Below are positions 6,092-48,755 of a stretch of DNA of 64,000 nucleotides, piece by piece (position 1 is the first letter of the stretch; every line of letters begins with the position of its first letter). The position numbers were made by a program, and so were the translations under genes. The stretch is taken from positions 7,021-71,020 of the forward strand of contig JAHCIT010000008.1 in the NCBI GenBank assembly GCA_026129095.1. Reading direction: 5' to 3'. The DNA is from Deltaproteobacteria bacterium. GTDB lineage: Bacteria; JAGRBM01; JAHCIT01. The notes under the pieces are model-generated. The model did no database searches. It was not told the origin of the DNA and saw nothing but the letters and a program-made list of their open reading frames with translations.

Positions 6092-6102
6092 GATCTCTGC
6101 CC

Positions 6103-7068: not shown

Positions 7069-7070
7069 GA

Positions 7071-12174: not shown

Positions 12175-12187
12175 GAAAACCTGCCTG

Positions 12188-16257: not shown

Positions 16258-16331
16258 GGCTCTTCAGGGTTTCTGGACCACTGGCTCCCCAGCCACCGGT
16301 CCCCCCCAAAGGCCCTGGGCCACCCCTGCCT

Positions 16332-19617: not shown

Positions 19618-19650
19618 TTGCCCGTAATCTTCATTTCCCGGCCGCCCCGC

Positions 19651-20076
19651 TCATGCCTTGCCGTTCAGCGCGGCGGCCGCCTCGTACCGGTTCCATACTT
19701 CCGGATCCCACAGCTCGATCCGGTTCACGCTGCCGATCGCCACCAGCGAGGACGGCAGCGCCACCTGCCGGCGCACATCCTGCGGAATGAGCAGCCGCCA
19801 CTGCTCGTCGAACTCGGCGTCCACGGCCCTGGCGGTGAGCAGCCGCAGTTTCATTCTTTCCTCGCCGCTCTCGATCACGTTCAGACGGTCGGCGAACTCC
19901 ATCAGCTTCGGCGCATAAGCCGCATACGGGATCAGGTCGAGGCAGGGCATGTTCTGGTCGCGGACGATAAACACCTTCCGCTGCGGATCGCGCTCCAGGA
20001 AGCTGCTCCGCCAGCGGGACGGAAGGGCAATGCGGCCCTTGCCGTCCATGGTGATTTCGTGCTGACCCGTGAACAC
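19651..20076 (-). CDS. mraZ: transcriptional regulator MraZ
   Basis: Track ORF begins at TTG 20107-20109; GTG at 20074-20076 gives N-terminus (M)FTGQHEITMDGKGRIALP, which matches the canonical MraZ N-terminus in length; an in-frame ATG at 20047-20049 is a shorter alternative. Confidence 0.85.
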   Translation of the reverse strand: MFTGQHEITMDGKGRIALPSRWRSSFLERDPQRKVFIVRDQNMPCLDLIPYAAYAPKLMEFADRLNVIESGEERMKLRLLTARAVDAEFDEQWRLLIPQDVRRQVALPSSLVAIGSVNRIELWDPEVWNRYEAAAALNGKA

Positions 20077-29798: not shown

Positions 29799-31187
29799 TC
29801 AGCTCCCGCGCTGCCAGTATTCGTCGCCCAGGTGGGTGATGATCGGCGCGCCGACCAGTTCACGGATGGTGTTCTCGAACTTCTCGCGCTGCACGAAGAA
29901 GTCGTGCTGGACCGGCACACCCTCGGCCACCGGCTGCGGGCTCTTGGAGTAGAGGCCGAGCCATTCCTGGACACTCCCCATTCCCTTGCGGCGGGCCCAG
30001 TCGAGGAACCGGGCGAGGTCGATCACCATCGGCGCGGCGAGGATCGAGTCGCGGCAGAAGAACGAGAAGTCGATGATCATCGGGTATCCGAGGAACCCCT
30101 GGAAATCGACGCGGTCCAGCGCGTGCTTGTCGTCGCCGGCGATCTTGTAATAGCTGATGAGAACCGGCTGCTCGATCTCGTAGCCCAGGATGTTGGCCGC
30201 CTGGTTCGACTTGGACTTCTTCTTCGTCTGGAAGGAGCCGGGCTCGTCGAGCACCAGGCCGTCCTTGTTGCCGATCCAGTTGTTGCTGGCCCAGCCCATG
30301 ATCTTCAGTTCCTTGCCCTTGAAACCCGGCATGATGACCGACTTCATCCAGGTCTGGCCCGTCTTGCCGTCGTTGCCGCTGAACGGAACGTTGTTCTTGC
30401 GGGCGAGCTCGCGCAGGGCCGGAATCTCGGCGCCCTGTGACGGCGAGAAGTTGTGGTGCGGCACGCCCAGCCGGAACGCGGCGTAGATGTAAACCTGCGA
30501 GGGGGCGATGTCGGGCGAGTTCTTCACCAGTCCCTTCTCGAACGCGGCCAGCGTCTGGTGCACCGGCTTTACCTCGTGGTACCGCTCGGTCGATCCGACA
30601 TAGACCACGACGGCGCGGTCGCAGCGGTTCTTCTTCATGAAGGTCTGGATGTCCTTCATGATCTGCTCGGCCGCCTTCATCTTGTTCTTCGCCTTGATCT
30701 GGATGTCGGCCTTCAGGTTCTTCACATAGGCGTTCTCGAAGTAGCCCGGCATCGGCTTGCGGCCCTTGAGCGCACCCTTCACCTGGTCCACCAGCGCCGG
30801 ATCGAGCACCTTGGCGTAGCGGGCCGCCTCATAGGCGTCCATCCGGTTGATATCCCAGCCACCCACCACCATGTCGCCGAAATCGGCAACGCTCACGATG
30901 TCGTTGATCTTCGCGAAGTTGTCGCGTGCGCCGATACGGATGGTGCCGGTCTGCGACAGCATGCCGTGCTTGTCATCGGCGTCCGCCAGTCCGCGCTTGA
31001 ACAGCTCGATCCCCACCTGCACGGTCGTGGCGATGGCCCCGTTGCAGCCCACCAGCAGGATGGCCAGCTTGCCGAGCTTTTTCTTCTCGTCGCTGGCCGT
31101 GCGCGTCAGTTTGCCGAGGTTGACGGTGTTGGGGGTGCGGGGTGCTGCCGAACGGGCTGTCTTGCGCGCGGCGGTGGCCTTGGCCAT
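29799..31187 (-). CDS. myo-inositol-1-phosphate synthase (inositol-3-phosphate synthase)
   Basis: 462 aa; NAD-binding N-terminus LAILLVGCNGAIATT and conserved MIPS core blocks; ATG at 31185-31187. Confidence 0.88.
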   Translation of the reverse strand: MAKATAARKTARSAAPRTPNTVNLGKLTRTASDEKKKLGKLAILLVGCNGAIATTVQVGIELFKRGLADADDKHGMLSQTGTIRIGARDNFAKINDIVSVADFGDMVVGGWDINRMDAYEAARYAKVLDPALVDQVKGALKGRKPMPGYFENAYVKNLKADIQIKAKNKMKAAEQIMKDIQTFMKKNRCDRAVVVYVGSTERYHEVKPVHQTLAAFEKGLVKNSPDIAPSQVYIYAAFRLGVPHHNFSPSQGAEIPALRELARKNNVPFSGNDGKTGQTWMKSVIMPGFKGKELKIMGWASNNWIGNKDGLVLDEPGSFQTKKKSKSNQAANILGYEIEQPVLISYYKIAGDDKHALDRVDFQGFLGYPMIIDFSFFCRDSILAAPMVIDLARFLDWARRKGMGSVQEWLGLYSKSPQPVAEGVPVQHDFFVQREKFENTIRELVGAPIITHLGDEYWQRGS

Positions 31188-34196: not shown

Positions 34197-34272
34197 TGGT
34201 CGGGCTGGAGGGACTCGAACCCTCGACCTCTTGCTCCCGAAACAAGCGCGCTACCAACTGCGCTACAGCCCG
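34197..34272 (-). tRNA. tRNA-Pro (anticodon CGG)
   Basis: Minus-strand sequence CGGGCTG-TA-GCGC-AGTTGGTA-GCGC-G-CTTGT-TTCGGGA-GCAAG-AGGTC-GAGGG-TTCGAGT-CCCTC-CAGCCCG-A-CCA folds as a cloverleaf with a 7-bp acceptor stem, C1:G72 and encoded CCA. Confidence 0.93.
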
Positions 34273-35072: not shown

Positions 35073-35939
35073 ATGAAGGATTTTCTCGCCCGGAACTGGT
35101 TTTTCCTGCTGATGGCGGCGCTGGCGGGCCTTGCCGTCACAAACAACGTCTGGCCGCCGCCAGAGCCGGAACGCATTCAGCCTGTCTGGCCGCCCGCCGC
35201 CCCGAGGGCGGCCTCCGGCCCCTGCACCCAGTGGCGGTCGGTACTGGAAACCGAACCCGCCGCCGCGGATGCGCCCGAAGTCCTGGCGCTCATGGCGCAG
35301 TTCCGCGAGGCTGCAATCATCGGCGAATCGGACCCCGCTCCCGCGGGGACCGGCGGCCAGTTCCGCGAGATCTCCCGGGAGGCCCGCGGCATCGGCGTCC
35401 GGATCGGCCGGCTCGCTGGCAGCGACGCCATGAAGCCGGTCATGGAGGTCACGCTGGTTGACCTTTGCCGGCTGGTTCTTCTGGACCATGGATCGGTACG
35501 GATAGAACCGGATGTTTCGCCCAAGGCGGCGGCCGCGTCCATCCGCGCCTCGCTGGACCGCCTCTCGCCGCCGGGGATGCGCTCCCCGATCGCCGGGATC
35601 AGCGGTTTCCTCCCGCTGGACGGAGCCCCGCCGGAACTGGCCCTGAAACTCCGCGAAACAGTCCGCGACTTCGCCTCCAGTGACGACGAACTGCTGCTGC
35701 GCGAGACGGATTACGAAAGCCTCCGGCTCCCCGAGGCCCGGCTGGAGGAGAACGCCGCCGAGCCGCCCGTGGCGGACCTTCTGGTGACAATCAGGGCCGG
35801 ACGGAACGGCCCGCTCCATGTGGCGCACCTCGAACGGGAGTATCCCTCGCCCGGACGGGAGACGATCGAGGGGGGTTCGGTCGCCGAACTTGCCGAAAAT
35901 ATCCTGAACCGCATGAAGCGGATCGCCTACGCCCGCTAG
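35073..35939 (+). CDS. hypothetical protein with N-terminal signal/TM segment
   Basis: 288 aa; N-terminus MKDFLARNWFFLLMAALAGLAVT; no recognised domain; 3' end overlaps the convergent rhodanese-like gene by 4 nt. Confidence 0.55.
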   Translation: MKDFLARNWFFLLMAALAGLAVTNNVWPPPEPERIQPVWPPAAPRAASGPCTQWRSVLETEPAAADAPEVLALMAQFREAAIIGESDPAPAGTGGQFREISREARGIGVRIGRLAGSDAMKPVMEVTLVDLCRLVLLDHGSVRIEPDVSPKAAAASIRASLDRLSPPGMRSPIAGISGFLPLDGAPPELALKLRETVRDFASSDDELLLRETDYESLRLPEARLEENAAEPPVADLLVTIRAGRNGPLHVAHLEREYPSPGRETIEGGSVAELAENILNRMKRIAYAR

Positions 35940-36997
35940 CGCGGCGACGCCGGGCCGGTTTCAATCCGGTAGCCCGGATAGGCCGTCCACTCGGCGAAAC
36001 CGCCGGGGAAGTGCTGGACGTTCCGGTAACCTGCTGACCTCAACGCAAGCCAGACGGCAGCCGAGCGAAGCCCCCAGGAGTCATAGACGACCACCGGCGT
36101 GTCCGGGAAAATCCCCCGTTCCACTGCGATCGACTGGATCTTCTCCCTTGAAAGCCACTGGCCGGAAGGCCACCGCATGCGGGGATAGACCAGCGTCCAT
36201 TCGAGATGTTTAGCGCCACCGATCCGGCCCCTCACAGGGAGTGGAGACGAAGTCTGTCTCCCTTCAAACTCGCCCAAGGTCCGGGTGTCCAGAACCAGCC
36301 GTACCGTTCCGGTGGCAATGATCTGGTCCACATCCGGGGCCGTCAGGGTCTGGCGGGTATAAAAGTCCGGCGGATACTCCAGCACGTCCGCAGGCGGCGG
36401 CGTTCTCCATGACCGCGTGAACGGGCGCCCGTCGAATTTCCAGGCGGGAACCCCGCCGTCCATCAGGGCTACGTTCGGATAACCCCATTGCCGGAGCGCA
36501 TAAACGACATAGGCCGCCTCACCCCAATCCCGCTCGGGGCTTCCGACGACGATGACCCTGACTGACGGGACCGTGAGCCGTGCACGTGAAACCGCCAGTT
36601 CTTTCCGTTTGTGGTCGTGCGCGACGCGCCCGTCCGGATTCAGGAAGGGTTCGGCGTCCTCGCCCCACCCCGCAAAATCGGTCCACCGCATCCTCACCGA
36701 TCCGTCGATATGGCCATCCAGGTAGTAGTCATAGGACTGGCGGACATCGATGATCCGCACGTTTCCATCCCCCATCCAGGTATGCACCTCATGCGTGGAA
36801 GCAACGTAGGGGAAATCCGTGTCCGGTGCATCGCCGGCGTACACCCCGCCGGGCGGCGAACTGTCTATCCGTGGGGGAGCTTCTTCCGGTGCCAGTCCCG
36901 GGCCGATCATCTGGGCGCCGGCCGGCAGCGCCACGAGCCAGACGGCAAGCACGGTCCAGCAATACCGGATAAGGGACTGACGAAAGCTTCGGAACAT
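35936..36997 (-). CDS. secreted tandem rhodanese-homology-domain protein (no obvious catalytic Cys)
   Basis: Track ORF trimmed to M21 (MFRSFRQSLIRYCWTVLAVWLVALPAGAQ signal peptide); two rhodanese-like halves; the active-site-loop position reads YDSWGLRS rather than CxxGxR. Confidence 0.75.
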   Translation of the reverse strand: MFRSFRQSLIRYCWTVLAVWLVALPAGAQMIGPGLAPEEAPPRIDSSPPGGVYAGDAPDTDFPYVASTHEVHTWMGDGNVRIIDVRQSYDYYLDGHIDGSVRMRWTDFAGWGEDAEPFLNPDGRVAHDHKRKELAVSRARLTVPSVRVIVVGSPERDWGEAAYVVYALRQWGYPNVALMDGGVPAWKFDGRPFTRSWRTPPPADVLEYPPDFYTRQTLTAPDVDQIIATGTVRLVLDTRTLGEFEGRQTSSPLPVRGRIGGAKHLEWTLVYPRMRWPSGQWLSREKIQSIAVERGIFPDTPVVVYDSWGLRSAAVWLALRSAGYRNVQHFPGGFAEWTAYPGYRIETGPASPR

Positions 36998-37010
36998 TCC
37001 GGCCGGGATT

Positions 37011-37787
37011 CTAGCCCGCCCTCGACGGCTCGGGCCACCCCAGCTCACGCCGGACAAAGGCGAGTATCTCCTGGGCGAGTTTCTCCTTGTGGTCGGTCAG
37101 GCGGTGGTCGCCGCCGGGAATCTCGACCAGCTTCACCCGCCCGCCAGAGGCGGCAGCCACCCGGCGGGAATCGTCCACCGGCACCTGCTCGTCCCTCGTT
37201 CCGTGCAGGATGAGGGCGGGCACCCTCAGCCGGGAAGCCAGGGAGTCGTGCCCGTAGCCCTGCCAGTCGGCGGCGAGATCCCACGTAAAATCGAGCTTGA
37301 GCCACGGGCTCTCGATCCGCAGGCTGTTGGTGTCGCGCCACTCGCGCACGCGGCGCTCACCGACACCCGCCATGATGTTGTCAACGAACCGGAAGGCCGG
37401 GGCGATCAGTGCCAGACCAGCGATTCCCTCTGGCTCCTCGACGGACGTCCAGGCCGACGTGAGCCCGCCGAGCGAGGAGCCGATCAGCACCACCCGGCCG
37501 GTCCACTCTTCTTTCCGGCGGATGTAGCCGAGAAAGCCCGCCAGATCGTCAATCTGCCGGGTCAGTGTCAGCGTGCGTATTTCCCCTTCGGAACCCCCGT
37601 GACCGGTCGTGTCGAGCGCCGCATAGCCAAAGCCCCGCTGGCCGAAAAATTCGGCGAAGTAGCGGGCCTTGTCGCCGCGGCGGTCCGAACCCAGCCCGTG
37701 CACAAAGACAAAGCCGAAATCATGCGCCGGCCCGCTGATGTCGTATTCGAGCAGCCGGCCGCTTACCTGCAGGGAACCGGACTTCAT
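37011..37787 (-). CDS. alpha/beta-fold hydrolase
   Basis: 258 aa; nucleophile elbow GSSLGG; HGLGSD oxyanion region; start overlaps the upstream SGNH gene stop. Confidence 0.8.
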   Translation of the reverse strand: MKSGSLQVSGRLLEYDISGPAHDFGFVFVHGLGSDRRGDKARYFAEFFGQRGFGYAALDTTGHGGSEGEIRTLTLTRQIDDLAGFLGYIRRKEEWTGRVVLIGSSLGGLTSAWTSVEEPEGIAGLALIAPAFRFVDNIMAGVGERRVREWRDTNSLRIESPWLKLDFTWDLAADWQGYGHDSLASRLRVPALILHGTRDEQVPVDDSRRVAAASGGRVKLVEIPGGDHRLTDHKEKLAQEILAFVRRELGWPEPSRAG

Positions 37788-39025
37788 TGGCCTTCCTCCA
37801 CTGGCTGCGGCCGGAGTCCGGGCCAGAACTCGCTGACGAATGTCTCGGCCACGATCCGGTTTCCGGCGGCCGTCCAGTGCCCATCCCTTGGGAAATATAC
37901 CCAGGTGTCTCCGGCCTCGCGGCGGATCAGGTGTTCCAGAAGGCCAAGCACCGGCACGTTTTCCACGGCTCCCCAGGATTTCAGCCCGCGGTCCAGCGCC
38001 CAGAGGTCGAACTCGTCCGGGTTCAGCCTCATGAGTTCGACCGTCCGCCCCCAGTCATCCTTCACGTAACGGCCACTGGTCTGCATCTCCCACTTGTGGG
38101 GAACGACCACGACCGCGAACTGCGCCCCCGTGGCGCGGACTTCGGCAGCATAAAGGGACAGGATGGCCTTGAGAAGCCGGAGCGCGGAGTCCAGCACCTC
38201 GGGGCGTTCCTTCCGGTACAGCATCAGCACGTCATCGTAACGGCCCCGCGCTTCACCGGAAGCGCGGAGACTCCGCAACCGGCCCTTGAAGAACGCGTAC
38301 AGGTGAGAGCGGTTTCTGAGGAAACGGTCAACCGGAAGCAGTCTGGGCACCGTACGACTGCTCTCCCGTGCCGGAACAAGGTCCAGGCCACCATCCCCGT
38401 TCAGCACAAACCGGGGCTTGGGGAAATACCGGAACTCCTGGAGGATATCGATCAGGTCATTGGGATAGACCACTTCGACCACGAGCCGGGCCTTCAGTGC
38501 CTCTCCATGCCGCCGCCAGTGAAGCAGATGCTGATCGGTACCGGTCCCCGGCACGCCCAGGTTCAGCCAGATGTGGTCACCAAGGCTATTCGCCACCAGA
38601 TCGAAGGCCCGCCCGGACTCTTCCACGCCGTGCCCCCACACAAACGAATCCCCGGTGACAACCACCACCGGCTTGCCGGTATCCAGAAGCGGCCCGAACT
38701 CCGGGGCCCGGTAACCATCCGAATTGGTTTGGACTGTGACCGAGAACTCCGGCGCAGAGTTGATGAACCTGACATTGGGCCGTAGGACCAGTCCCCGGTC
38801 CGGATCACCGGCGTATGGACTCTCCAGGCCGGCTGGCTCGATCATGCGGATGCTGGTGTCCACGGACAGTGCCGCGTCCTGGGGAGCGGCGATCCGGAAA
38901 AATCCCTCCAGCACGAGCAGCAGGAGAAGCGTGCTTCCCAGCATGGCGGCCAGACCAAAAAGGACCCGCCGCCGCACGGGATGCTTCGCCGCATTGGCGT
39001 CCGCCAGCGCAGTTCCGCGGGCCAT
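37784..39025 (-). CDS. SGNH/GDSL-type hydrolase or acyltransferase (AlgX/AlgJ-like), membrane-anchored
   Basis: 413 aa; N-terminal TM helix; block I VVVTGDSFVWGHG. Confidence 0.72.
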   Translation of the reverse strand: MARGTALADANAAKHPVRRRVLFGLAAMLGSTLLLLLVLEGFFRIAAPQDAALSVDTSIRMIEPAGLESPYAGDPDRGLVLRPNVRFINSAPEFSVTVQTNSDGYRAPEFGPLLDTGKPVVVVTGDSFVWGHGVEESGRAFDLVANSLGDHIWLNLGVPGTGTDQHLLHWRRHGEALKARLVVEVVYPNDLIDILQEFRYFPKPRFVLNGDGGLDLVPARESSRTVPRLLPVDRFLRNRSHLYAFFKGRLRSLRASGEARGRYDDVLMLYRKERPEVLDSALRLLKAILSLYAAEVRATGAQFAVVVVPHKWEMQTSGRYVKDDWGRTVELMRLNPDEFDLWALDRGLKSWGAVENVPVLGLLEHLIRREAGDTWVYFPRDGHWTAAGNRIVAETFVSEFWPGLRPQPVEEGQ

Positions 39026-39026
39026 T

Positions 39027-39329
39027 TCAGAAGATGGTGTAGATAAACGGTGCGACGGCAGTGCCCTGCGTCATCACCAGCAGGAACCCGATGGCCAGCA
39101 GCACGATCACGATGGGCGCCATCCAGTAGAGCTTGCGCTCCATCAGGAAGTCCTTGAACTCCGCCAGGGTACCGGCCCTCTCCTTCGCATCCCGCACGAA
39201 GCCGCCGCCCTCGCCCGCCTTCGCGAACGGGCTCTCTTCCTTGCCGGTTTCCGGTGTCTGGTTGCTGGAATCAGTCATGACGTCTGGATTACTCCGGTCC
39301 CGCCGGGGTGGCAAGGCTTCCTGCCGCAC
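39027..39329 (-). CDS. tiny membrane protein, DUF5989-like (SxtK-like)
   Basis: C-terminal EFKDFLMERKLYWMAPIVIVLLAIGFLLVMTQGTAVAPFIYTIF matches my recollection of the DUF5989 consensus; true start probably the internal ATG (MTDSSNQ...); 2 nt after the carbamoyltransferase stop. Confidence 0.6.
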   Translation of the reverse strand: MRQEALPPRRDRSNPDVMTDSSNQTPETGKEESPFAKAGEGGGFVRDAKERAGTLAEFKDFLMERKLYWMAPIVIVLLAIGFLLVMTQGTAVAPFIYTIF

Positions 39330-39331
39330 CG

Positions 39332-41083
39332 TTAATCGAGCTCAAAGGTTTCGAGCCAGTCCTTGCCCACCCGGTTCTTCTCCGGCTGCTCCCGCTTGTC
39401 GAGCAGATACGGCCCCACCACGAGATAGTCGATATTGGTGGCCATGAAGCACCGGTAGGCGTCCTCCGGCGAGTTGACGATCGGCTCGGATCGCACGTTG
39501 TAGCTGGTATTGATCAACAGAGGGCAGCCGGTACGGCGGTCGAACTCGGCCAGCACGTCATAAACAAGCGGATTCATCTCCCGCGAGACTGTCTGGATCC
39601 GGGCGGAACCGTCCACATGGGTCACCGCCGGTATCGTCCGCTTCTGGGGGTGGACCTGGCAGACGTGCAGCATGTACGGCGATTTGTGCCCCCGGAGATC
39701 GAACCACTCCTCGGCTTTCTCTTCCAGAACGATCGGTGCGAACGGCCGGAAACTCTCGCGGAACTTCACCTTGAGGTTCACCCGGTCCCGGTTATCGGGC
39801 CGGCGCGGGTCGGCGAGAATCGACCGGTTGCCGAGCGCCCTCGGACCGAACTCCATCTTCCCCTGCATCCAGCCGATGACGGCCTGTTCCTCGTCCAGCA
39901 GCCGGGCCGTTTCACGGACAAGTTCATCACGGCTCAGCTTGCGGTACGGGGCCTGCTTTTCATCGAAATGCTTCTGGATCTCCTCATCGGAGTATTCCGG
40001 TCCCGTATAAGGGTAGAAGGTCTCCGGTGTGCGGGGTTTGTTGAGCAGCGTGTACCAGCCAAACAGGGCCGCGCCGAGCGCCCCGCCCGCATCGCCAGCC
40101 GCAGGCTGGACATATATGCGGCGGAAGGGGCCTTCCCTGAGCAGCCGGCCGTTCGCCACGCAGTTGAGCGCGACGCCGCCGGCCATGCACAGGTCTTCCT
40201 TGCCGGTTTCACGATGCAGGTGCCGGGCCATCCGGAGAATGGCCTCCTCGGTTACCTTCTGGACGCTCATGGCCATGTCCTTGTGGAACTGCTCCAGGGG
40301 GTCTTCCTCACGCTGGCGGGGCGGGCGGCCGAACAGCCGGTCGAACTTCCCGTTCGTCATCCGCAGACCCTTGTGGTACGAAAAATAGTCCATGTTCATC
40401 TGGAAAGACCCGTCATCGCGGAGGTCGAGGAGGTTGTCCATGATGAGATCGACGTATTTGGGCTCACCGTATGGCGCGAGTCCCATCACCTTGTATTCGG
40501 CCGAATTCACCTTGAACCCCAGATAGTAGGTAAAGGCCGAATACAGGAGCCCCAGCGAGTGCGGGAAACGCACCTCCCGGATGATCCTGAACCGGTTTCC
40601 CTCGCCTTCACCGAAGGTGGTCGTGGCCCATTCGCCAACGCCGTCAGCGCACAGGATGGCTGCCTTCTCAAACGGGGAGGTCAAAAAGGCGCTCGCCGCG
40701 TGCGACTGGTGATGTTCCATGAACAGCAGTTCGCCGTTGTAGTCCAGTTCCTTGCGGATGAGACTCTTGATCCAGAGCTTCTTGGCTATCCAGACCGGCA
40801 TCGCCTTTGCGAATGACGGTAGCGACCAGGGGAACGACCCGAGATAAGTCGTGAGGAGCCGCTCGAACTTCACGAACGGCTTGTCGTAGAAGATCACCGC
40901 GTCGAGGTCTTTGACGGAAACTCCGCCGGTACGGAGCACGTACTCGACGGCATTCTGCGGGAACTCCTCGTCGTGCTTCTTGCGGGTGAAGCGCTCCTCG
41001 CTCGCGGCCCCCACAACCCGGCCATCCTGCACCAGCGCGGCAGCCGAATCGTGATACCAGCAGGAGATTCCCAGAATATTCAT
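39332..41083 (-). CDS. carbamoyltransferase, NodU/CmcH family
   Basis: 583 aa; N-terminus MNILGISCWYHDSAAALVQDGRVVGAASEERFTRKKHD and overall layout typical of NodU/CmcH/SxtI-type O-carbamoyltransferases. Confidence 0.9.
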   Translation of the reverse strand: MNILGISCWYHDSAAALVQDGRVVGAASEERFTRKKHDEEFPQNAVEYVLRTGGVSVKDLDAVIFYDKPFVKFERLLTTYLGSFPWSLPSFAKAMPVWIAKKLWIKSLIRKELDYNGELLFMEHHQSHAASAFLTSPFEKAAILCADGVGEWATTTFGEGEGNRFRIIREVRFPHSLGLLYSAFTYYLGFKVNSAEYKVMGLAPYGEPKYVDLIMDNLLDLRDDGSFQMNMDYFSYHKGLRMTNGKFDRLFGRPPRQREEDPLEQFHKDMAMSVQKVTEEAILRMARHLHRETGKEDLCMAGGVALNCVANGRLLREGPFRRIYVQPAAGDAGGALGAALFGWYTLLNKPRTPETFYPYTGPEYSDEEIQKHFDEKQAPYRKLSRDELVRETARLLDEEQAVIGWMQGKMEFGPRALGNRSILADPRRPDNRDRVNLKVKFRESFRPFAPIVLEEKAEEWFDLRGHKSPYMLHVCQVHPQKRTIPAVTHVDGSARIQTVSREMNPLVYDVLAEFDRRTGCPLLINTSYNVRSEPIVNSPEDAYRCFMATNIDYLVVGPYLLDKREQPEKNRVGKDWLETFELD

Positions 41084-41205
41084 GAAATGCCGTCTACTCC
41101 CTTAAATACCGTCCGGCTGCCCAGGCCGCATATCGCCGGCAACTGTGTAGCCTGAAAATCCAGGCAACGGGAACAGGTAACCCAGACTACGCAAACATAC
41201 CGGTT

Positions 41206-42312
41206 TTATTGGCTTTTATCCGGCTCAATCCGCAACTTCACGTCTTTCGGAGCGTCCATTACCGGCGACAGCCGTTCTGCAACCAGTTCCGCAACCCTTC
41301 GGTTGCCATGAGGGCTCCAGTGGGCGTCCACGTCGAAATGCCAGCTTTCCCAGCCGGACGGATCGGACAGCGCCTCGTCGTGCAGGTCAAGATACCTTAC
41401 TTCGAGTGAACCCAGCGTCTCCGCAAGGCTGCGCCGCTGCCAGTCCCTGAGCGTATTCGTAAAGACAACGTACGGGACCGCTCCATCGGAACGGACACGG
41501 CGAACCCATTCGGCCGTGATCGCGTTGAATCTCCTGATTCGCCGGACTGTTTCCGGATCTTCCGGAGACCGGTTTTCCGACAGTGCATCAATAAACACAC
41601 GCATCCGTTCGGCAGGCGTTCCGGCCGATGTGCGCGGCATCCGGCCCCTGCCGCCAAAGTTGAATGCCAGTATCCGGGGGAGGGAACGGACCAGCTTGTA
41701 GAGCCGGACCTGTTTTTCCGCCGCCGAGTTGAACCTTTGCCACCATCCCGGCCGGGGAACCGGAAGCAGTTCCACGTTTTCGCCATCCCCGGGAGCAAGA
41801 ACACGTGCCGTATCGGCATCTTCCCAGTCGTTCCCGCACACCGTATAAACGGCAATACGTGGCTGGAGTTCCCGCGCCCTGTAGACGTAACTCGTCAGCA
41901 CATTGGCGATGGAATAGCTTACGACGCCGAAGTTGAGACTTTCGACCGGCCGCCCCAGTTCTCCGGCGAGCAGACCAGCGGTGATCACCGGCCAGCTCGC
42001 TTCATAGGGAACCTCGGCTGCCAGCGTGTAGCTGTCGCCCAGAAACGCGATCCGCACCGAATCATCCGAAAGAGCGGGTTCCGGCCCCCGGAAATGGCGG
42101 CTGTTGAAACTGATCCGGTTCCGGTAGCCAGGCCCCACGTAGTCGTAGGAGGCACCGGCTTCGGGCACTTTCCCCTCACGGGGATCGAACTGAAGGTAGT
42201 GGAACCGGATCGGCATCTGCCGGGCTGCGTATTCAGCCAGCCCGAACGTCGCCAGCATAAACAGGCCCAGCAGGCCGGCGGCGTATATCCTGAACCGTTG
42301 GCGCCGCTCCAT
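41206..42312 (-). CDS. SGNH/GDSL-type hydrolase-like protein, membrane-anchored
   Basis: 368 aa; N-terminal TM helix; block I VRIAFLGDSYTLAAEV. Confidence 0.7.
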   Translation of the reverse strand: MERRQRFRIYAAGLLGLFMLATFGLAEYAARQMPIRFHYLQFDPREGKVPEAGASYDYVGPGYRNRISFNSRHFRGPEPALSDDSVRIAFLGDSYTLAAEVPYEASWPVITAGLLAGELGRPVESLNFGVVSYSIANVLTSYVYRARELQPRIAVYTVCGNDWEDADTARVLAPGDGENVELLPVPRPGWWQRFNSAAEKQVRLYKLVRSLPRILAFNFGGRGRMPRTSAGTPAERMRVFIDALSENRSPEDPETVRRIRRFNAITAEWVRRVRSDGAVPYVVFTNTLRDWQRRSLAETLGSLEVRYLDLHDEALSDPSGWESWHFDVDAHWSPHGNRRVAELVAERLSPVMDAPKDVKLRIEPDKSQ

Positions 42313-42324
42313 CTGGTCTTGGTT

Positions 42325-42633
42325 TCAGAATTGCCGGCGGCAGGCGCCAACAGAATCGTTGGTGGACTGATGGACTTCGTAATAGGTGCCGGTTCCGCCA
42401 TCGGACCGGAACTTCAGCCTGAGCGGGTCGCCGCCCGACAGCCGCGACAACAGGCTGACCGGTCCCAGGACGAGCAGGTACACCACCGCCATCACAACCG
42501 GATTGACGACCGACCCGATCAGGTGTCCCAGCTTGATGAGCGCCCTGTTAATGGCGCCAAGCAGGCGGCGGACGGGTCCTTTGGGGGTATTCTTCTCTTT
42601 CACCGCTCTATCCAGCCGTTTACGGCATCTCAA
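42325..42633 (-). CDS. small membrane protein (possibly SxtJ-like), first gene of the carbamoyltransferase operon
   Basis: 102 aa; basic N-terminus then hydrophobic VVNPVVMAVVYLLVLGPVSLL; family call is tentative. Confidence 0.5.
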   Translation of the reverse strand: MRCRKRLDRAVKEKNTPKGPVRRLLGAINRALIKLGHLIGSVVNPVVMAVVYLLVLGPVSLLSRLSGGDPLRLKFRSDGGTGTYYEVHQSTNDSVGACRRQF

Positions 42634-42756
42634 CTGCCGCCATATCGGCCCAATGGCCGGTACATGTCAAGCGTGACTCCCCTCTTGTCACCCGGTCCCC
42701 GACCGGATAGGGAAGCGCCGCCCGGCGCGTGCCGTGTTCATTCCGAAGGGAACCCC

Positions 42757-44031
42757 ATGCAGGTAGATATCTCCAGTCCCTCCAGTGTCGAGCGAAAAGT
42801 CGTGATCCGCGTGCCCGCCGAACGGCTTGCCGAGGAGCGGCAGAAGGTCATTACGGACCTGAGCAAGTATGCCCAGATCAAGGGGTTCCGGAAAGGAAAG
42901 GCCCCGGTCGCCGTCATCGAGCGGTTGTACGGCTCCGCCATACTGGATGAGGTCCGCCAGCGGATCCTGCGCGACACGGTCGAAAAGGCCTTCGACGAGA
43001 ACAAGCTCCAGCCGATCTCCCAGCCGGTCGTGGATGCCAAGGAGCCGGAACTGGGCCGCGACTACGAGTTCAGCATCCAGTTCGAGGTCAAGCCGGAGTT
43101 CGAGGTCAAGAACTACACCGGAATCGAAATCACCCAGAAGGCAGAGGCCGTCACCGACGATGACGTGGCCAAGACGCTGGAGAACCTGCGCCAGCAGCAC
43201 GCGATACTGGTCCCCAACGAGGCCGACCAGACGCTGGGCACCGGCCTGTTTTTCGTCGGTTCGTACACCGGCACCATCGGCGAGAAAGAGGTTTCCTCGG
43301 GCGGCAAGGATGTGGAGATCGAAATCGGCGCCTCCGGGCAGCTTCCGGGCCTGTCGGACAAGCTCGAAGGGATGAAGACCGGTGAAACCCGGCTGGTCGA
43401 GCTCACCGTCCCCGCGGACTGGGGCTCTCCCGACATCCAGGGCAAGACCTACAAGGTTACTTTCACCTGTAACGCCATCAAGCGGCGGGTGCTGCCCACG
43501 CTGGATGACGAGTTCGCCAAGGATCTCGAGATGGAATCGATGGACGCGCTCCGGAAAAAGGTCCGTGAGGACATGGAGGCGGCGGCGGCCAGCCGGGCGC
43601 GCAACGAAGCGGTCAGCAAGCTGCTCGACCGGATCGTCGAGCAGAACCCGGTCGATGTGCCGCCCTCGCTCGTCGAGTCGCAGTCCATGGAATACATTCA
43701 GCGGACCTATGCCCAGTTCCAGATGCAGGGTCTGAAAATGCAGCCGCGCCCGGAAGAACTCGAGAAGATGAAGGAAAGCGTGCGTGAGGACTCCACCAAG
43801 GCCGTCCGGCGCTCGCTGGTGCTGCTGGCCATCGCCGAGAAGGAAAAGCTCGAGGCCACCGACACCGATGTCGAGGCCGAGGTGGCCCGCCGGGCCGAAT
43901 CGGCAGGAGTGCCCGCAGACAAGCTCCGCGCCTATCTGGACAAGGAAGGCGCTCTCAGCCAGATCAGGGGACAACTGATCGAGAAGAAGGTGATCGACTT
44001 TCTGATGGAAAAATCGAAGGTGACGGTCTAG
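42757..44031 (+). CDS. tig: trigger factor (ribosome-associated chaperone/PPIase)
   Basis: Real start ATG 42757-42759 (MQVDISSPSSVERKVVIRVP) with GAAGGG 8 nt upstream; the track ORF 41737..44031 is an upstream read-through of the same frame. Confidence 0.93.
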   Translation: MQVDISSPSSVERKVVIRVPAERLAEERQKVITDLSKYAQIKGFRKGKAPVAVIERLYGSAILDEVRQRILRDTVEKAFDENKLQPISQPVVDAKEPELGRDYEFSIQFEVKPEFEVKNYTGIEITQKAEAVTDDDVAKTLENLRQQHAILVPNEADQTLGTGLFFVGSYTGTIGEKEVSSGGKDVEIEIGASGQLPGLSDKLEGMKTGETRLVELTVPADWGSPDIQGKTYKVTFTCNAIKRRVLPTLDDEFAKDLEMESMDALRKKVREDMEAAAASRARNEAVSKLLDRIVEQNPVDVPPSLVESQSMEYIQRTYAQFQMQGLKMQPRPEELEKMKESVREDSTKAVRRSLVLLAIAEKEKLEATDTDVEAEVARRAESAGVPADKLRAYLDKEGALSQIRGQLIEKKVIDFLMEKSKVTV

Positions 44032-44773: not shown

Positions 44774-44999
44774 CTATCTGGACAGCCTTTCAGAGCCGGT
44801 AGTTCCCCTAAAATCGCAGATTCTCACGCGATTTTCCTTGCACCCGGCAATTGACGGAACCCGGTCCGGTTATTTATAAAGGCCCGACTTCCGGCCGTCA
44901 AACACGCGCAAGCGGACTGGACCTGCGACCAGGCCCATTCGGCTGGAGAATTCCCCGGCGAACGCCGCGGACCCTATACCACTGAGGAGTCACACAACG

Positions 45000-45653
45000 A
45001 TGTCTATCAAGGAACTTCTGGCGCTTCTGGGCGAGCACTATCATGAGGGCGGCTGGATGATGCATGGCATCGCCGCCACCGGAATTATCGCCTTCGCCAT
45101 CTTCTGCGAGCGGTTCTACATCATCTGGATCAAGGCCAAGTTCAGCAAGGAAGAATACCTCGTCACCATCAAGAAGTTCCTCTCGGAACGGAACGTGGAT
45201 GGCGCCATTGCGTGGCTCCAGGAGCGCGAGCACCCGCTGGCCAACATCCTCCGCGCCGGTCTCGTGCAGTTCAAGTCGGGAGACCCCAAGTTCAAGGAAG
45301 CGATGGATCTTGCATCCATCTCCAACATGCCGCAGCTCGAAAAGCGCACTGGATACCTGGCCATGCTCGGCAACATTGCAACGCTGGCCGGACTGCTGGG
45401 AACGGTTGTCGGTCTCATTGGCGCCTTCGGCGCGGTGGGTGGCGCCGAGGCATCAAAGAAAGCAGAAATCCTCGCCGCCTCGATTTCGGAAGCCATGAAC
45501 TGCACGGCCTTCGGCATTGGCACGGCGATCCCGTGCCTCCTGTCATTCGCCATCGTGAGTTCAAAGACCACGGCCGTTATCAGCGATATCGAAACCGTAT
45601 CCGCGACGGTCTCGGACTTCCTGGAACGGATTGCCGAGAAGGAAGCGGCCTGA
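45000..45653 (+). CDS. exbB: MotA/TolQ/ExbB-family proton channel
   Basis: 217 aa; three TM helices; conserved C-terminal block AEALxxTAFGL-like (ISEAMNCTAFGIGTAIP). Confidence 0.85.
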   Translation: MSIKELLALLGEHYHEGGWMMHGIAATGIIAFAIFCERFYIIWIKAKFSKEEYLVTIKKFLSERNVDGAIAWLQEREHPLANILRAGLVQFKSGDPKFKEAMDLASISNMPQLEKRTGYLAMLGNIATLAGLLGTVVGLIGAFGAVGGAEASKKAEILAASISEAMNCTAFGIGTAIPCLLSFAIVSSKTTAVISDIETVSATVSDFLERIAEKEAA

Positions 45654-45716
45654 CCCGGTTCGGATGACCTGCGGCTCCATAGCGGAGCCGTGGGACATCA
45701 ATGGAGCACCCTATAG

Positions 45717-46196
45717 ATGGGCAAGCACACCAAAGGCATCAAGTCACTGGACGCGCCGGTCAACCTGATGCCGTTCATTGACCTGCTGTGCGTCTTGATC
45801 TGTTTTCTGATCATGTCGGCCGTATGGGTTTCCATCACGCAGATCGAGATCAACCTGCCATCATCGGGCGGCGGCGGAGCCGGGGCGGCCGAGGATGCAC
45901 CCCCGCCATTTTCACTGACGGTCGTGGTGAAAAAGGCCGGGTATGGCATCGCCGCTTCAGGCGGCGCCCTGCCTGAAATACCCAAGACGGATGACGGCAA
46001 GTACGACACTGCAAAACTCGGCGAGAAGCTCGCCGAGATTCGCGGGCACTTCCCCAACGAACGGGAAGTGGTGATTGCCAGCGATCCGGGCATTCCCTAC
46101 GAAAACCTGGTCAGCACAATGGATATCGCCGTGAAAAACGGCTTTGACGCGATATCACTGGCCCCCTGGAATGAAACGACTGCTGAAGGGCAGTAG
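45717..46196 (+). CDS. exbD: ExbD/TolR-family biopolymer transport protein
   Basis: 159 aa; basic N-terminus, INLMPFIDLLCVLICFLIM TM helix, periplasmic domain. Confidence 0.85.
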   Translation: MGKHTKGIKSLDAPVNLMPFIDLLCVLICFLIMSAVWVSITQIEINLPSSGGGGAGAAEDAPPPFSLTVVVKKAGYGIAASGGALPEIPKTDDGKYDTAKLGEKLAEIRGHFPNEREVVIASDPGIPYENLVSTMDIAVKNGFDAISLAPWNETTAEGQ

Positions 46197-46208
46197 GAGA
46201 GAAAGGCA

Positions 46209-46748
46209 ATGGGCGCTGGCGCAGCAATGCCGGAACCATCCGGCGGAGGCGGTCAAAAAGGATTCCTGAAGCGCGGTAAGGCCGGCGGGCGTCGCATGAG
46301 CGCTCCCGATCTCATGCTGACTCCGCTGATCGACTTTCTCATCGTGCTCGTGATCTTCCTCATCCAGAGCTTTTCCGCCGACCCGACGATCAGCCTCCCC
46401 GGTGACGTGCGTCTCCCCCACTCCATATCCGAGAAGGGCCTCAAGGCCGCGGTAGCGGTGGCAGTATCCGAATCGGTAATCACCGTGGAAGGGCATGCTG
46501 TCGCCGCCGTTTCAGACGTGGCAGCCATGAAGGATTTCATCATTCCTGGCCTCGTCGCCGCCCTTCAGAAGACCCGCGAGCGGGCTGATGCCTGGGCGGC
46601 CGCCGGCATCGAAGGCACTGAATTCAAGGGGGACGTCATCATCACGTCCGACAAGGAAATCCCCTTCGATATCCTCATGAAGATCATGGCCTCCTGCGGC
46701 GAAGTGGGATACGGCAACCTGTCGCTCGCCGTGCTCCAGACCATCTGA
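46209..46748 (+). CDS. exbD: ExbD/TolR-family biopolymer transport protein (second copy)
   Basis: 179 aa; LMLTPLIDFLIVLVIFLI TM helix; start may be the internal ATG (MSAPDLML...). Confidence 0.8.
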   Translation: MGAGAAMPEPSGGGGQKGFLKRGKAGGRRMSAPDLMLTPLIDFLIVLVIFLIQSFSADPTISLPGDVRLPHSISEKGLKAAVAVAVSESVITVEGHAVAAVSDVAAMKDFIIPGLVAALQKTRERADAWAAAGIEGTEFKGDVIITSDKEIPFDILMKIMASCGEVGYGNLSLAVLQTI

Positions 46749-46930
46749 TTCCTCTCTCTGACGGCCATCGTATCCGGCCAGCGAACGCTATTGCCCCGCT
46801 CCGTGCAGTCAGTTATTTCCCGGCCGTGGGCGACTAACTGAGCAGTCAGTGAGCCCCTCTGGCCCGCCAGAACACACAGGAGATTCCGGACGTTACGCTT
46901 CGGTGAGGAGCGGCCCTTCCGGCACCGGCA

Positions 46931-47908
46931 TTGGCACTCGATCCGCATCAGTATCCGCTTGAATGGACCGCTCCCGTCCCCCCGGTGGAAGACGCCCGGC
47001 GGTGGTGCCAGCGCATGGCGGCAAGCCACTACGAGAACTTCCCCGTGGCGAGCTGGATACTGGGCGGCCGCAGGCGGCACCATGTGGCTGCCGTATACGC
47101 CTTTGCACGGACCGCCGACGACCTGGCCGACGAGCCGGACTATCCGGAACCCGGTGTGACCCCCGAAAAGCGTCTGGCCAACCTGGACCAGTGGCAATCC
47201 CACCTGACGCTGGCGTTTGAGGGCCGGGCATCCCATCCGGCATTTGTCGCGCTCTCGGCCACGGCCCGGGAACTCGGCCTACCGAAAAACCTGTTTGAAG
47301 ACCTGCTGTCGGCATTCCGCCAGGACGTGATGAAGTCCCGGTATGAAAACCTGGATGAGGTGCGTGACTACGCCCGCCGGTCCGCGAATCCGGTCGGGAG
47401 GCTCGTGCTCCGCATCTGGGGGATCACGGATCCCAGGGCCGACGCCTGTTCGGATGCCATCTGCTCGGCCCTCCAGCTCGTGAACTTCTGGCAGGACGTG
47501 TCGAAGGATTATGTCGAGCGCGACCGCATCTATCTCCCCCGCGACCGGATGGTGCACCATGGGGTATCCGAGACTGAACTCCGTGCGGGACCGGTGACTG
47601 CCGGCTACCGGAACCTGCTGGAGGAAATGAACCAGACCGCCGCACAGCTTTTCGAGGCGGGCCGTCCCCTGCCCTCGATGCTTCCGTTCCCCCTGTCACT
47701 GTGGCTCCGGTGGGTCTGGCTTGGCGGCACGGCCATCGGAAGGCGGCTCCGGCTGGCCGGGTACGATGTCTTTTCCCGGCGCCCTGTCCTCACGGGGCCC
47801 GACATGGTGAAGCTGCTGCTGCGGGGCCTGTTCCCCCTGGGCGGACGCCCTGCCCTGCCGTCCGGCCGGATGCTGGCAGCGGCCACGGTATCCAAGGAGG
47901 CTGCCTGA
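46931..47908 (+). CDS. hpnC: squalene/phytoene-synthase-family enzyme, HpnC-like (hydroxysqualene synthase)
   Basis: 325 aa; HYENFPVAS block; Asp-rich motifs ADDLADE and QDVSKD; TTG start per track, with internal GTG/ATG alternatives; stop overlaps the hpnD ATG (TGATG). Confidence 0.72.
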   Translation: MALDPHQYPLEWTAPVPPVEDARRWCQRMAASHYENFPVASWILGGRRRHHVAAVYAFARTADDLADEPDYPEPGVTPEKRLANLDQWQSHLTLAFEGRASHPAFVALSATARELGLPKNLFEDLLSAFRQDVMKSRYENLDEVRDYARRSANPVGRLVLRIWGITDPRADACSDAICSALQLVNFWQDVSKDYVERDRIYLPRDRMVHHGVSETELRAGPVTAGYRNLLEEMNQTAAQLFEAGRPLPSMLPFPLSLWLRWVWLGGTAIGRRLRLAGYDVFSRRPVLTGPDMVKLLLRGLFPLGGRPALPSGRMLAAATVSKEAA

Positions 47909-48753
47909 TGGCCGATACAGCCGCTACCGACCAGTTCCGGAACTCCAACTTCGCGCTAGCCTTCTTCTTCCTGCCGAAGGCCGAACGTGAGGCGATGCAG
48001 ATTGTCTATGCCTACTGCCGGATACTGGATGATATTGTCGATGAACCCGGTGATCCCGCGGTCAAGCGCAAGGAACTCCGCAAGTGGGAGGAGGAACTGG
48101 ACCAGATATACAACGGCCGTCCCCTCGACCCACTGGGCCGCCGCCTCCAGGAAATCGTCCGCCAGTTCCACCTGAGCCGCGAACCGTTCCAGCGGATCAT
48201 CGACGGATGTGCAATGGACCTCGACCACGCCCGTTATGAAACCTTCGACGATCTCTATGTCTACTGCACCAAGGTGGCGAGCGCGGTCGGCCAGTGCTGC
48301 ATCGAGATATTCGGCTACGAAAACATGAAAACGCAGGACTATGCCGAGCATCTGGGAGTCGCGCTCCAGCTTACCAACATCCTCCGGGACGTGGGCGAGG
48401 ATGCCCGGCGGGGGCGGATCTACCTTCCGCGGCAGGAAATGGACCGGTTCGGAGTCACCGAGACGGACATTCTCGCCGGCCGGCAAACGGACAATACGCG
48501 AAAGCTTCTCGAACAGTTCGGCAAGAGGGCGAAAGGCTACTACGAACTCGCCGAGAGCGAAAAGCATGAGCTGGAACCGAAACGGCTCATGGCCGCCGAA
48601 ATCATGGGTGCCATTTACCGGAAGGTGCTCGACCGGGTGGAAGCCTCCGGGTACGACGTATTCGGCGCTCCCCTGAAACTGACCACACTGGAGAAGGCTT
48701 CGGCGCTCGCAGGAGTCATGGCGCGCCATTACCTGCGCCGCGAGGCAGCCTGA
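47908..48753 (+). CDS. hpnD: squalene/phytoene-synthase-family enzyme, HpnD-like (presqualene diphosphate synthase)
   Basis: Trimmed to ATG 47908-47910 (MADTAATDQFRNSNFALAFFFLP...); Asp-rich motifs LDDIVDE and RDVGEDARRGRIYLP. Confidence 0.75.
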   Translation: MADTAATDQFRNSNFALAFFFLPKAEREAMQIVYAYCRILDDIVDEPGDPAVKRKELRKWEEELDQIYNGRPLDPLGRRLQEIVRQFHLSREPFQRIIDGCAMDLDHARYETFDDLYVYCTKVASAVGQCCIEIFGYENMKTQDYAEHLGVALQLTNILRDVGEDARRGRIYLPRQEMDRFGVTETDILAGRQTDNTRKLLEQFGKRAKGYYELAESEKHELEPKRLMAAEIMGAIYRKVLDRVEASGYDVFGAPLKLTTLEKASALAGVMARHYLRREAA

Positions 48754-48755
48754 TC

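Follow-up and report, generated by a model that had tools for sequence, protein, structure and literature searches.

A conserved carbamoyltransferase gene block with SxtJ- and SxtK-type membrane proteins, and its possible role in O-carbamoylation of a lipid-linked envelope saccharide

The 64,000-nt stretch of deltaproteobacterial DNA analysed here (contig JAHCIT010000008.1 of assembly GCA_026129095.1, positions 7,021 to 71,020; hereafter the window) carries a genuine operon of seven tightly packed minus-strand genes (35936-42603) built around a CmcH/NodU-type O-carbamoyltransferase (CT). CT and two tiny membrane proteins of the operon, SxtJ and DUF5989 (SxtK-type), form an obligate trio spread over dozens of bacterial phyla, and the full set of seven families recurs as a block in sister genomes. 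Our preferred reading, to which we assign a probability of roughly one half, is that SxtJ and SxtK tether CT to the membrane for O-carbamoylation of a lipid-linked envelope saccharide, and that outward-facing SGNH hydrolases edit the exported product.

The seven-gene block and its conservation

The genes are listed below in transcription order, with revised starts where these apply.

42325..42603, minus strand: short SxtJ-family membrane protein, 92 aa (PF19588)
41206..42312, minus strand: SGNH/GDSL hydrolase 1 (SGNH1), 368 aa (Lipase_GDSL, 24.1 versus 23.6 bits)
39332..41083, minus strand: CmcH/NodU-type O-carbamoyltransferase (CT), 583 aa (Kae1-like N-terminal and YrdC-like C-terminal domain)
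39027..39278, minus strand: DUF5989 (SxtK-type) peptide, 83 aa (PF19451; canonical length 49-54 aa)
37784..39025, minus strand: SGNH hydrolase 2 (SGNH2), paralogue in the SxtL position, 413 aa (ALGX, 27.6 versus 26.5 bits, plus a GDSL block)
37011..37787, minus strand: cytoplasmic alpha/beta-fold serine hydrolase (ABH), 258 aa (Hydrolase_4, 82.6 bits)
35936..36997, minus strand: secreted tandem rhodanese-homology protein, 353 aa (two Pfam Rhodanese domains, 92.8 bits)

The initial annotation of this DNA had described seven co-directional minus-strand genes at 35936-42633, and an open reading frame (ORF) check of the window returned the same coordinates. Its family assignments all proved correct in Pfam profile searches, and its parallel to SxtI, SxtJ and SxtK was also right. 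We add that the 42325-42633 product is itself a truncated SxtJ, and that in the saxitoxin cluster a GDSL lipase gene, sxtL, directly follows sxtI-J-K. Taken as longest ORFs in transcription order, the genes are separated by 12, 122, 2 and 1 nt, followed by overlaps of 4 and 47 nt. An independent gene call on the identical contig of the public assembly (L001; L numbers designate loci) places the start of three genes later: SxtJ begins with GTG at 42603 (the longest ORF begins with TTG at 42633), DUF5989 with ATG at 39278, leaving a gap of 53 nt after CT, and the rhodanese gene with ATG at 36997, which makes its junction with ABH a 13-nt gap. With these starts, the spacing becomes 12, 122, 53, 1, -4 and 13 nt.

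At least three related genomes have all seven families together in one block. The gene order is short SxtJ-CT-DUF5989-SGNH-SGNH-ABH-rhodanese in L082, SGNH-short SxtJ-CT-DUF5989-SGNH-ABH-rhodanese in L090/L091 and ...CT-DUF5989-SGNH-ABH-rhodanese in L092/L093, the position of one SGNH gene being all that varies within the block. Identity to the window proteins is 84-85% for CT, 73-76% for ABH, 71-85% for DUF5989, 57-60% for SGNH2, 52% for SxtJ, 37-38% for the rhodanese and 36% for SGNH1 (the last for L090 only, where the gene lies upstream of SxtJ), and the 4-nt overlap between SGNH2 and ABH is preserved in each of these blocks. The window block lies between tig, exbBD and hopanoid-type genes and, at its other end, rpe; upstream of the sister blocks are dsbD and thioredoxin genes, and downstream of them MarR/MacAB or metallo-beta-lactamase-fold genes. 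Because the block is kept while its flanks differ, the seven genes represent one conserved unit in this lineage, and their arrangement is not a matter of chance.

As a gene association the core of the block is not new, since the sxtIJKL set comprises the same four families and is present in hundreds of species. What is new here is the lineage-specific variant of seven genes, with a truncated SxtJ upstream of CT, two SGNH paralogues, an ABH and a rhodanese carrying Asp in place of Cys.

The carbamoyltransferase, its two small partners and their genomic context

CT matches Carbam_trans_N with 333.4 bits (residues 3-340) and Carbam_trans_C with 243.2 bits (residues 399-563), and can be aligned from end to end with the solved enzymes 7xb6, NovN, GdmN and TobZ (E 1e-83 to 1e-103). 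Across 75 orthologues, 139 of 583 positions are at least 98% conserved, and the window CT retains each one. They include H11, D12, H124, H125, H128, D147, E151 and D331 in the N-domain and GPR413-415, R420, K440, R442, R446, H489, D491, R495 and N525-T-S527 in the C-domain; the conserved metal- and nucleotide-motif residues are identical in the aligned 7xb6 (numbered here as in the window protein). Judged from these residues, CT is catalytically intact and its two-domain CmcH/NodU architecture is complete. NCBIfam gave nothing specific for the seven products, its NodU match with CT being partial (182 bits, against an equivalog cutoff of 1000). No transmembrane (TM) segment is seen by hydropathy, which makes CT a predicted soluble, cytoplasmic protein. 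Its C-terminus is a conserved ...ELD. Members of the family work in three steps, from carbamoyl phosphate through carbamoyl-AMP to the O-carbamoyl product (PMC6022934), and by homology the window CT would make carbamoyl-AMP from carbamoyl phosphate and ATP and hand the carbamoyl group to a hydroxyl.

The short SxtJ scores 27.5 bits with PF19588 (gathering threshold 24.4) and covers only model positions 50-99 of 99. What it retains is the conserved C-terminal core, namely an amphipathic stretch, one long hydrophobic helix and a tail ending in RRQF; aligned with 24 canonical SxtJ proteins of 132-146 aa, it is missing their two N-terminal TM helices. Orthologues of similar size are found upstream of CT in L082 and L090 (86-93 aa) and in L085 and L088 (84-85 aa), and a custom hidden Markov model built from 25 SxtJ sequences matches those of the sister genomes at E 1e-14. 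Used as a query, the short SxtJ returned 601 representative proteins at E<=1e-3, nearly all of them through their C-terminal half; one match, P0259 (4596 aa; P numbers designate proteins), was rejected as a compositional false positive, being an SprB/type IX secretion system adhesin. The window SxtJ shares the operon with CT at a distance of one gene, and in relatives SxtJ is directly adjacent to CT or fused to it.

DUF5989 scores 73.4 bits with PF19451 (versus 27) and covers model positions 2-49 of 49. Its N-terminal extension is common to L082, L090 and L092 (80-81 aa). Hydropathy places a single TM helix near the C-terminus, followed by the near-invariant tail QGTAVAPFIYTIF; aligned with 30 homologues from many phyla, the consensus reads ...RKKWWL-PI---LLLLG-LI---QGSA-APFIYTLF. 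We call the peptide SxtK-type by its length (165 bp for sxtK) and the synteny described in PMC2679770, not by sequence comparison. Both tiny proteins end in a near-invariant Phe, within ...[EK][KR]QF for SxtJ (42325-42340) and ...APFIYT[LI]F for DUF5989 (39027-39070). A literature search returned no paper mentioning DUF5989 and no published function for either small protein.

CT is 100% identical to an NCBI entry of a 'Deltaproteobacteria bacterium' metagenome-assembled genome, and more than 8000 database relatives are found at E<1e-20. When a single genome of each species was scanned, at least 598 loci came up, of which 80 were kept (CT 52-59% identical); 65 of these had enough flanking DNA to be assessed, and 42 are long loci. 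Their hosts belong to Gemmatimonadota, Omnitrophota, several groups of the Candidate Phyla Radiation (CPR), Bacteroidota, Planctomycetota, Chloroflexota, Cyanobacteria, Verrucomicrobiota, Nitrospirota, Proteobacteria and Firmicutes. An SxtJ gene stands beside CT in 64 of the 65 assessable loci and both SxtJ and DUF5989 in 58, with the order CT-SxtJ-DUF5989 in 55 loci: the three are an obligate trio. An SGNH gene accompanies them in 22 of the 42 long loci, within about 2.5 kb of CT in 21. All-against-all clustering of the flanking ORFs of the 80 loci gave no conserved neighbour other than CT, SxtJ, DUF5989 and SGNH; the large clusters that it produced are antisense or shadow ORFs of CT.

The points on which the initial annotation had made its proposal depend thus hold up. 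The two small ORFs are real genes, with homologues beside CT in those 58 loci across many phyla; the neighbourhood recurs, as the seven-family block in three sister genomes and as the trio across phyla; and none of the conserved motif residues of CT is missing.

Among the carriers, Sinorhizobium meliloti 1021 offers a genetically tractable one, with the cassette on pSymB (L094, 475580-495409) arranged, at about 483.9-486.4 kb, as a divergent GDSL gene followed by SxtJ-DUF5989-CT. Its neighbours there are a paired HisKA_3 histidine kinase and LuxR-type response regulator. A Rhodobacteraceae plasmid carries the cassette as well. Our literature search returned nothing relevant on the S. meliloti gene or on characterised carbamoylated exopolysaccharide systems.

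Gene fusions couple the trio to the membrane. In Verrucomicrobiota, CT and SxtJ are joined in frame as CT::SxtJ proteins of 728-762 aa, which make up about 100 clusters at 90% identity, and all three Pfam domains are present in 87 of 120 among the matches listed. The single chain is standard in Verrucomicrobiota/Chthoniobacterales (L043 8001-10217; P0136-P0251), where NCBI names some of these proteins 'SxtJ family membrane protein' and one 'Nodulation protein nolO'. The AlphaFold2 model of one fusion consists of the CT domain, a disordered linker, two helices, a 44-residue helix and a disordered tail; it yields secondary structure and confidence values, not SxtJ-CT contacts or the orientation of the tail. 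Given these fusions, CT and SxtJ would therefore work together physically, with the N-terminus of SxtJ in the cytoplasm.

A different fusion is found with the closest relatives of the window CT beyond the sister genomes (66-68% identical), in L083, L084, L086 and L087. These loci have no separate SxtJ gene; the SxtJ core, the very portion retained by the window protein, is fused to the C-terminus of a PMT_2 family (GT-C) glycosyltransferase directly upstream of CT, and DUF5989 follows CT. At L083 (6542-11046, with equivalents in L084, L086 and L087, all Polarisedimenticolia-type genomes) the unit reads [PMT_2 GT-C::SxtJ core]-CT-DUF5989, and the next gene encodes an ArnC-like polyprenyl-phosphate glycosyltransferase of family GT2 (198 bits over the full model; L083 was the only locus tested with NCBIfam). 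The same position is held in L084 and L086 by a larger gene encoding a GT2+GT4 fusion of 746-747 aa, and is cut off in L087, a 4.8-kb contig showing only the PMT_2-CT-DUF5989 core. In L083, L084 and L086 the unit lies inside a Wzz/GT2/epimerase/GT4/Wzy/SGNH/flippase locus. An apparent 'PMT2' match in 75 loci was traced to the SxtJ core at that protein's C-terminus, and the GT-C part alone had no match in the 80 loci.

In the Myxococcota-type L085 and L088, short SxtJ-CT-DUF5989 adjoins exosortase EpsH/EpsI, Poly_export and a sigma-54 regulator. A 922-aa ORF in a planctomycete metagenome-assembled genome (L059 2248-5016) joins an NAD-dependent epimerase/GDP-mannose-4,6-dehydratase-type domain to a full CT, with sequencing error as a possible cause. 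Some SGNH partners carry TPR domains as SGNH::TPR fusions. DPM1/GtrB-like GT2 genes occur in 11 of the 80 loci, directly upstream of CT in L006 and L007. Overall, at least one glycan-assembly gene lies within 8 kb in 21 of the 42 long loci and at least two in 13, figures that are a lower bound and have no matched genomic background. Long ORFs in L067 (a DUF5989 fusion) and L074 (a CT extension) hold no other Pfam domain and are probably over-extended at the start codon. CapK_C F390-synthetase/PaaK-like AMP-ligase genes are seen downstream of CT both in the exosortase-type L085 (11543-14400) and in the Wzy-type L083 (14890-16308), a recurrence which suggests that the same polymer is decorated with acyl groups or amino acids as well.

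Hydrolases, rhodanese and the possible function of the block

SGNH1, which additionally has a weak ALGX match in Pfam, is predicted to have a signal-anchor helix at residues 7-27 and its catalytic domain outside the cytoplasmic membrane. SGNH2 combines a signal anchor (19-47) with a small beta domain and with an SGNH core that is interrupted by a helical insertion. Both anchors are preceded by basic residues, indicating an N-in orientation by hydropathy. The two paralogues have in common invariant GDS, Asn and D-x-H-W columns, and thus the block I GDS nucleophile, the oxyanion Asn and the C-terminal Asp/His pair that define the SGNH family.

Comparison of the SGNH2 sequence with the PDB gave nothing usable, and its fold affinity was assessed on a predicted structure model. 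This model lies nearest to CgnD and to ordinary GDSL/carbohydrate esterases, with PatB and OatA at lower Z, and its catalytic residues follow the classical Ser...Asp-x-His order, not the permuted arrangement of AlgX. The acyl transfer proposed earlier for this block is not supported: unlike the AlgI/J/F/X, PatA/PatB and OatA systems, the block has no MBOAT (AlgI-type) or AT3 partner, and esterases and CgnD outscore the transferases, so that an AlgX/AlgJ-type O-acetyltransferase is not the closest affinity. On the model, SGNH hydrolysis appears at least as likely as transfer. Recombinant CgnD (PDB 8a2n) was soluble when expressed and yielded crystals; in vitro it cuts a leader peptide at a slow rate (PMC10070186). 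SGNH2 differs from it in its membrane anchor and extra N-terminal beta domain, and the window block has no genes for peptides that are synthesised by the ribosome and modified after translation (RiPPs).

ABH has no TM segment by hydropathy and shows the motifs GSSLGG, an acidic residue in HGTRDE and a His in GGDHR; among solved structures it comes closest to monoacylglycerol lipases and cinnamoyl esterases (E ~1e-13). The rhodanese-like product had been described as secreted and without its catalytic Cys, and both features were verified. Hydropathy gives a signal peptide ending ...ALPAGA/QM, and alignment to 1UAR places Asp at the active-site Cys of the C-domain (vvvyDswglRS versus ivvyCriaeRS), a substitution kept in 3/3 orthologues at 37-38% identity. 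Despite its rhodanese fold family, the protein is not expected, judging by this residue, to carry a persulfide. In the 80 more distant loci, CT has neither ABH nor the rhodanese nearby; the two are lineage-specific conserved members of the block.

We propose that the short SxtJ and DUF5989, both bitopic, would keep the soluble CT attached to the cytoplasmic membrane on its inner side, as the fusions and predicted topology suggest. The tethered enzyme could then reach a polyprenyl-phosphate-linked sugar or repeat unit prior to export, an acceptor glycan presumably made by genes outside the block. SGNH1 and SGNH2, anchored, facing outward and with predicted Ser/Asp/His triads intact, may work on the product once it has been exported, most likely as esterases trimming or editing O-substituents (acyl or carbamoyl). 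ABH in the cytoplasm and the Asp-for-Cys rhodanese in the periplasm would be lineage-specific accessories. Carbamoylation of glycans has precedent within the family, in NodU acting on Nod factors (PMC6022934) and WapO acting on the lipopolysaccharide core of Pseudomonas (PMC13552734).

The initial annotation knew of no characterised system of this composition, and our literature search likewise found none combining an O-carbamoyltransferase with an SGNH protein. The closest likeness is to the saxitoxin genes sxtI (carbamoyltransferase), sxtJ (405 bp), sxtK (165 bp) and sxtL (GDSL lipase) (PMC2679770, PMC2684587). The four families are the same, DUF5989 corresponding to SxtK (~54 aa) and the GDSL/SGNH protein to SxtL (~426 aa), by family, size and synteny rather than identity. 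The window block differs in its truncated SxtJ upstream of CT, its two SGNH proteins, its ABH and its Cys-less rhodanese, and its relatives stand in polysaccharide loci, not in toxin clusters. No scaffold sxt genes (sxtA-type polyketide synthase-like, amidinotransferase) lie within about 10 kb of it; this region contains tig, exbB/D, squalene-synthase-like, rpe, short-chain dehydrogenase/reductase (SDR), NmrA and inositol-phosphate synthase genes, with the dcw cluster further left.

NodU/NolO and WapO/PA5005 belong to the same family and use envelope or secreted saccharides as acceptors and carbamoyl phosphate as donor; their descriptions in PMC6022934 and PMC13552734 mention no SxtJ/SxtK-type partner. 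TobZ, GdmN, NovN and 7xb6 share the Kae1-like plus YrdC-like design and the carbamoyl-AMP mechanism (PMC6022934), yet they are stand-alone soluble antibiotic-tailoring enzymes, whereas the window CT clade, 53-68% identical across phyla, is nearly always accompanied by the two tiny membrane proteins. The Arn and Gtr systems (ArnC/ArnD/ArnEF/ArnT; GtrB/GtrA/GtrC) resemble the relatives only, where CT-DUF5989 stands between a GT-C gene and, in L083, an ArnC-like gene. The logic matches, in that a lipid-linked sugar is made, modified on the cytoplasmic face, flipped and transferred outside; carbamoylation would replace the deformylation of Arn, and profile searches gave no homology between SxtJ or SxtK and ArnE/F or GtrA. 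A GT2, small flippase or GT-C gene is missing from the window block itself, GT2 and GT-C genes surrounding CT in L083, L084 and L086.

Several observations weigh against our preferred reading. Neither the window block nor the three sister blocks contain a glycosyltransferase, flippase or polymerase, and they are surrounded by housekeeping genes (tig, exbBD and rpe for the window block; dsbD and thioredoxin for the sister blocks). Half of the 42 long loci have no glycan gene nearby, and there is no matched background against which enrichment could be gauged. In the best-known cassette, sxtIJKL, the acceptor is a soluble alkaloid (PMC2679770, PMC2684587), and CgnD, the closest fold match of SGNH2, belongs to a peptide natural-product pathway (PMC10070186). 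The case for tethering by SxtJ and SxtK comes entirely from fusions and predicted topology, and their C-terminal tails may be oriented either way. The envelope-glycan acceptor put forward in the initial annotation is supported only indirectly: the nearest CT relatives (66-68%) lie in Wzy/exosortase loci, but the window block lacks a glycosyltransferase.

With sxtI-J-K-L the only cassette members with an assigned pathway (PMC2679770, PMC2684587), the block might instead tailor a small molecule, that is, a secreted metabolite or signal carbamoylated and hydrolytically processed, as are saxitoxin or crocagin (CgnI with CgnD). Genes like sxtJ/K/L occur in the suomilide cluster (PMC10157211), and the cluster of CgnD, the best structural match of SGNH2, also has a carbamoyltransferase (PMC10070186). 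We nevertheless hold such a role to be quite improbable: neither the window block nor the sister blocks have a nonribosomal peptide synthetase, polyketide synthase, RiPP precursor or sxtA/sxtG-type gene in the roughly 10 kb to each side, the trio is present in reduced-genome CPR bacteria and in Omnitrophota, and the nearest relatives are in exopolysaccharide loci. A non-glycan envelope target is unlikely as well. Here CT would act on a lipid head group (hopanoid polyol, glycolipid) or a peptidoglycan precursor and the SGNH proteins would be lipases or esterases; an acceptor of any kind embedded in the membrane would be compatible with the tethering that the fusions imply, no glycan gene is close by in half of the long loci, and the window has two SQS_PSY genes and an amine oxidase gene 4-7 kb off and the dcw cluster at 6-19 kb. 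The hopanoid genes, however, are not beside the block in the sister genomes, and the fusion partners are a GT-C glycosyltransferase and a nucleotide-sugar epimerase, with no lipid enzymes among them. To our knowledge, many of the host phyla of the trio are also not known to make hopanoids.

A more ambitious account sees SxtJ and DUF5989 as the membrane core of a phylum-spanning carbamoyl pathway, either flipping a carbamoylated lipid-linked sugar outward or relaying the carbamoyl group across the envelope to SGNH proteins that would transfer carbamoyl or acyl groups to an envelope polymer, in a carbamoyl counterpart of Arn/Gtr and of AlgI-AlgX/PatA-PatB to which the rhodanese and ABH would be lineage-specific add-ons. 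The DUF5989 peptide and the SxtJ tail are conserved beyond what a passive anchor would seem to require, SGNH faces outward and CT inward, the four genes of the [GT-C::SxtJ]-CT-DUF5989-[ArnC-like GT2] unit include no other candidate flippase, and the SGNH::TPR fusions resemble periplasmic polysaccharide-modification scaffolds. We consider this account quite improbable, whether as flippase or as relay, for one or three helices plus one are a meagre basis for a transport path, hydrolases are the closest fold neighbours of SGNH2 while PatB and OatA come at lower Z, and only about half of the trios have an SGNH gene nearby. Chemically, moreover, a carbamoyl-serine intermediate on the enzyme is sluggish. 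That the seven genes are not one unit, ABH and rhodanese being unrelated neighbours of the four-family cassette, strikes us as very unlikely. It would agree with their absence near CT in the distant loci (0/80) and with the lack of a mechanistic connection between their roles and carbamoylation; yet both follow SGNH2 directly, in the same order and orientation, in L082, L090/L091 and L092/L093, where the flanks are different, and the SGNH2/ABH overlap of 4 nt and the rhodanese Asp are conserved.

The association of CT, SxtJ and SxtK was first seen in saxitoxin clusters, and the roles of the tiny proteins have never been assigned. Here the trio emerges as a self-contained module, from CPR bacteria to cyanobacteria, rhizobia and Firmicutes, that CT::SxtJ fusions couple to the membrane and that, in the lineage nearest to the window, is wired into lipid-linked exopolysaccharide assembly (GT-C::SxtJ, the ArnC-like neighbour, Wzy/exosortase loci). 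If our preferred reading, membrane-tethered carbamoylation of a lipid-linked saccharide, is true, O-carbamoylation would be a common and overlooked decoration of bacterial surface glycans. This would matter for how phages and the immune system recognise bacteria and, as the link between WapO and colistin in Pseudomonas suggests, for resistance to cationic antimicrobials, and it would explain why sxtJ, sxtK and sxtL are present in saxitoxin clusters.

Intergenic regions and other features of the window

Two intergenic regions belong to the block, in a window with a G+C content of about 65%:

41084..41205, minus strand: intergenic gap before CT, 122 nt, with AAGGGAG 12 nt 5' of the ATG
42604..42756, no strand assigned: divergent intergenic region between the block and tig, 153 nt, with a TTGACA hexamer and no consensus -10

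The gap before CT contains no terminator-like site, no Rfam match and no riboswitch, and could harbour an internal promoter; the leader is likewise without a riboswitch in the Rfam scan. The divergent region, delimited by the plus-strand trigger-factor gene tig (start 42757, from the transposed L001 gene map), is the presumed promoter region. A promoter scan of 35400-43200 gave no sigma-70-like site, a consensus match being missing from 42604-42756 as well, and a terminator scan of the same interval gave 9 terminator-like hairpins, with 5.7 +/- 2.9 expected and none at gene ends; these scans are uninformative on operon structure. PADLOC matched none of the seven block proteins to a defence system.

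Convergent with the rhodanese gene is a plus-strand ORF of 288 aa (35073-35939), called in the public assembly and without a Pfam match, whose stop codon overlaps that of the rhodanese gene at 35936-35939. On the other side of the block, at a distance of 2.4-7.5 kb, the plus strand carries exbB-exbD-exbD, two squalene/phytoene-synthase genes and an amine-oxidase gene (44984-50105; hpnC/hpnD/hpnE-like). Since the block has no such neighbours in the sister genomes, the proximity of these hopanoid-type genes is probably coincidental.

A complete dcw cluster occupies 6000-20000 on the minus strand, with mraZ, rsmH, a DivIC-like gene in the ftsL position, a PBP_dimer/Transpeptidase gene (ftsI-type), two adjacent Mur-ligase genes in the murE/murF position, and MraY-type, MurD-like and FtsW/RodA/SpoVE-family genes. 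Beside it, at ~20.3-25.6 kb, are LPG_synthase_TM, aldehyde dehydrogenase, DUF2304, GT2 and GT4 genes. The only RNA gene found by ARAGORN and Rfam in the 64-kb window is a tRNA-Pro (CGG) at 34197-34272 on the minus strand. A minus-strand myo-inositol-1-phosphate synthase gene (29799-31187), with NmrA-like and SDR genes near it, hints at inositol-containing lipids or solutes in the source organism.

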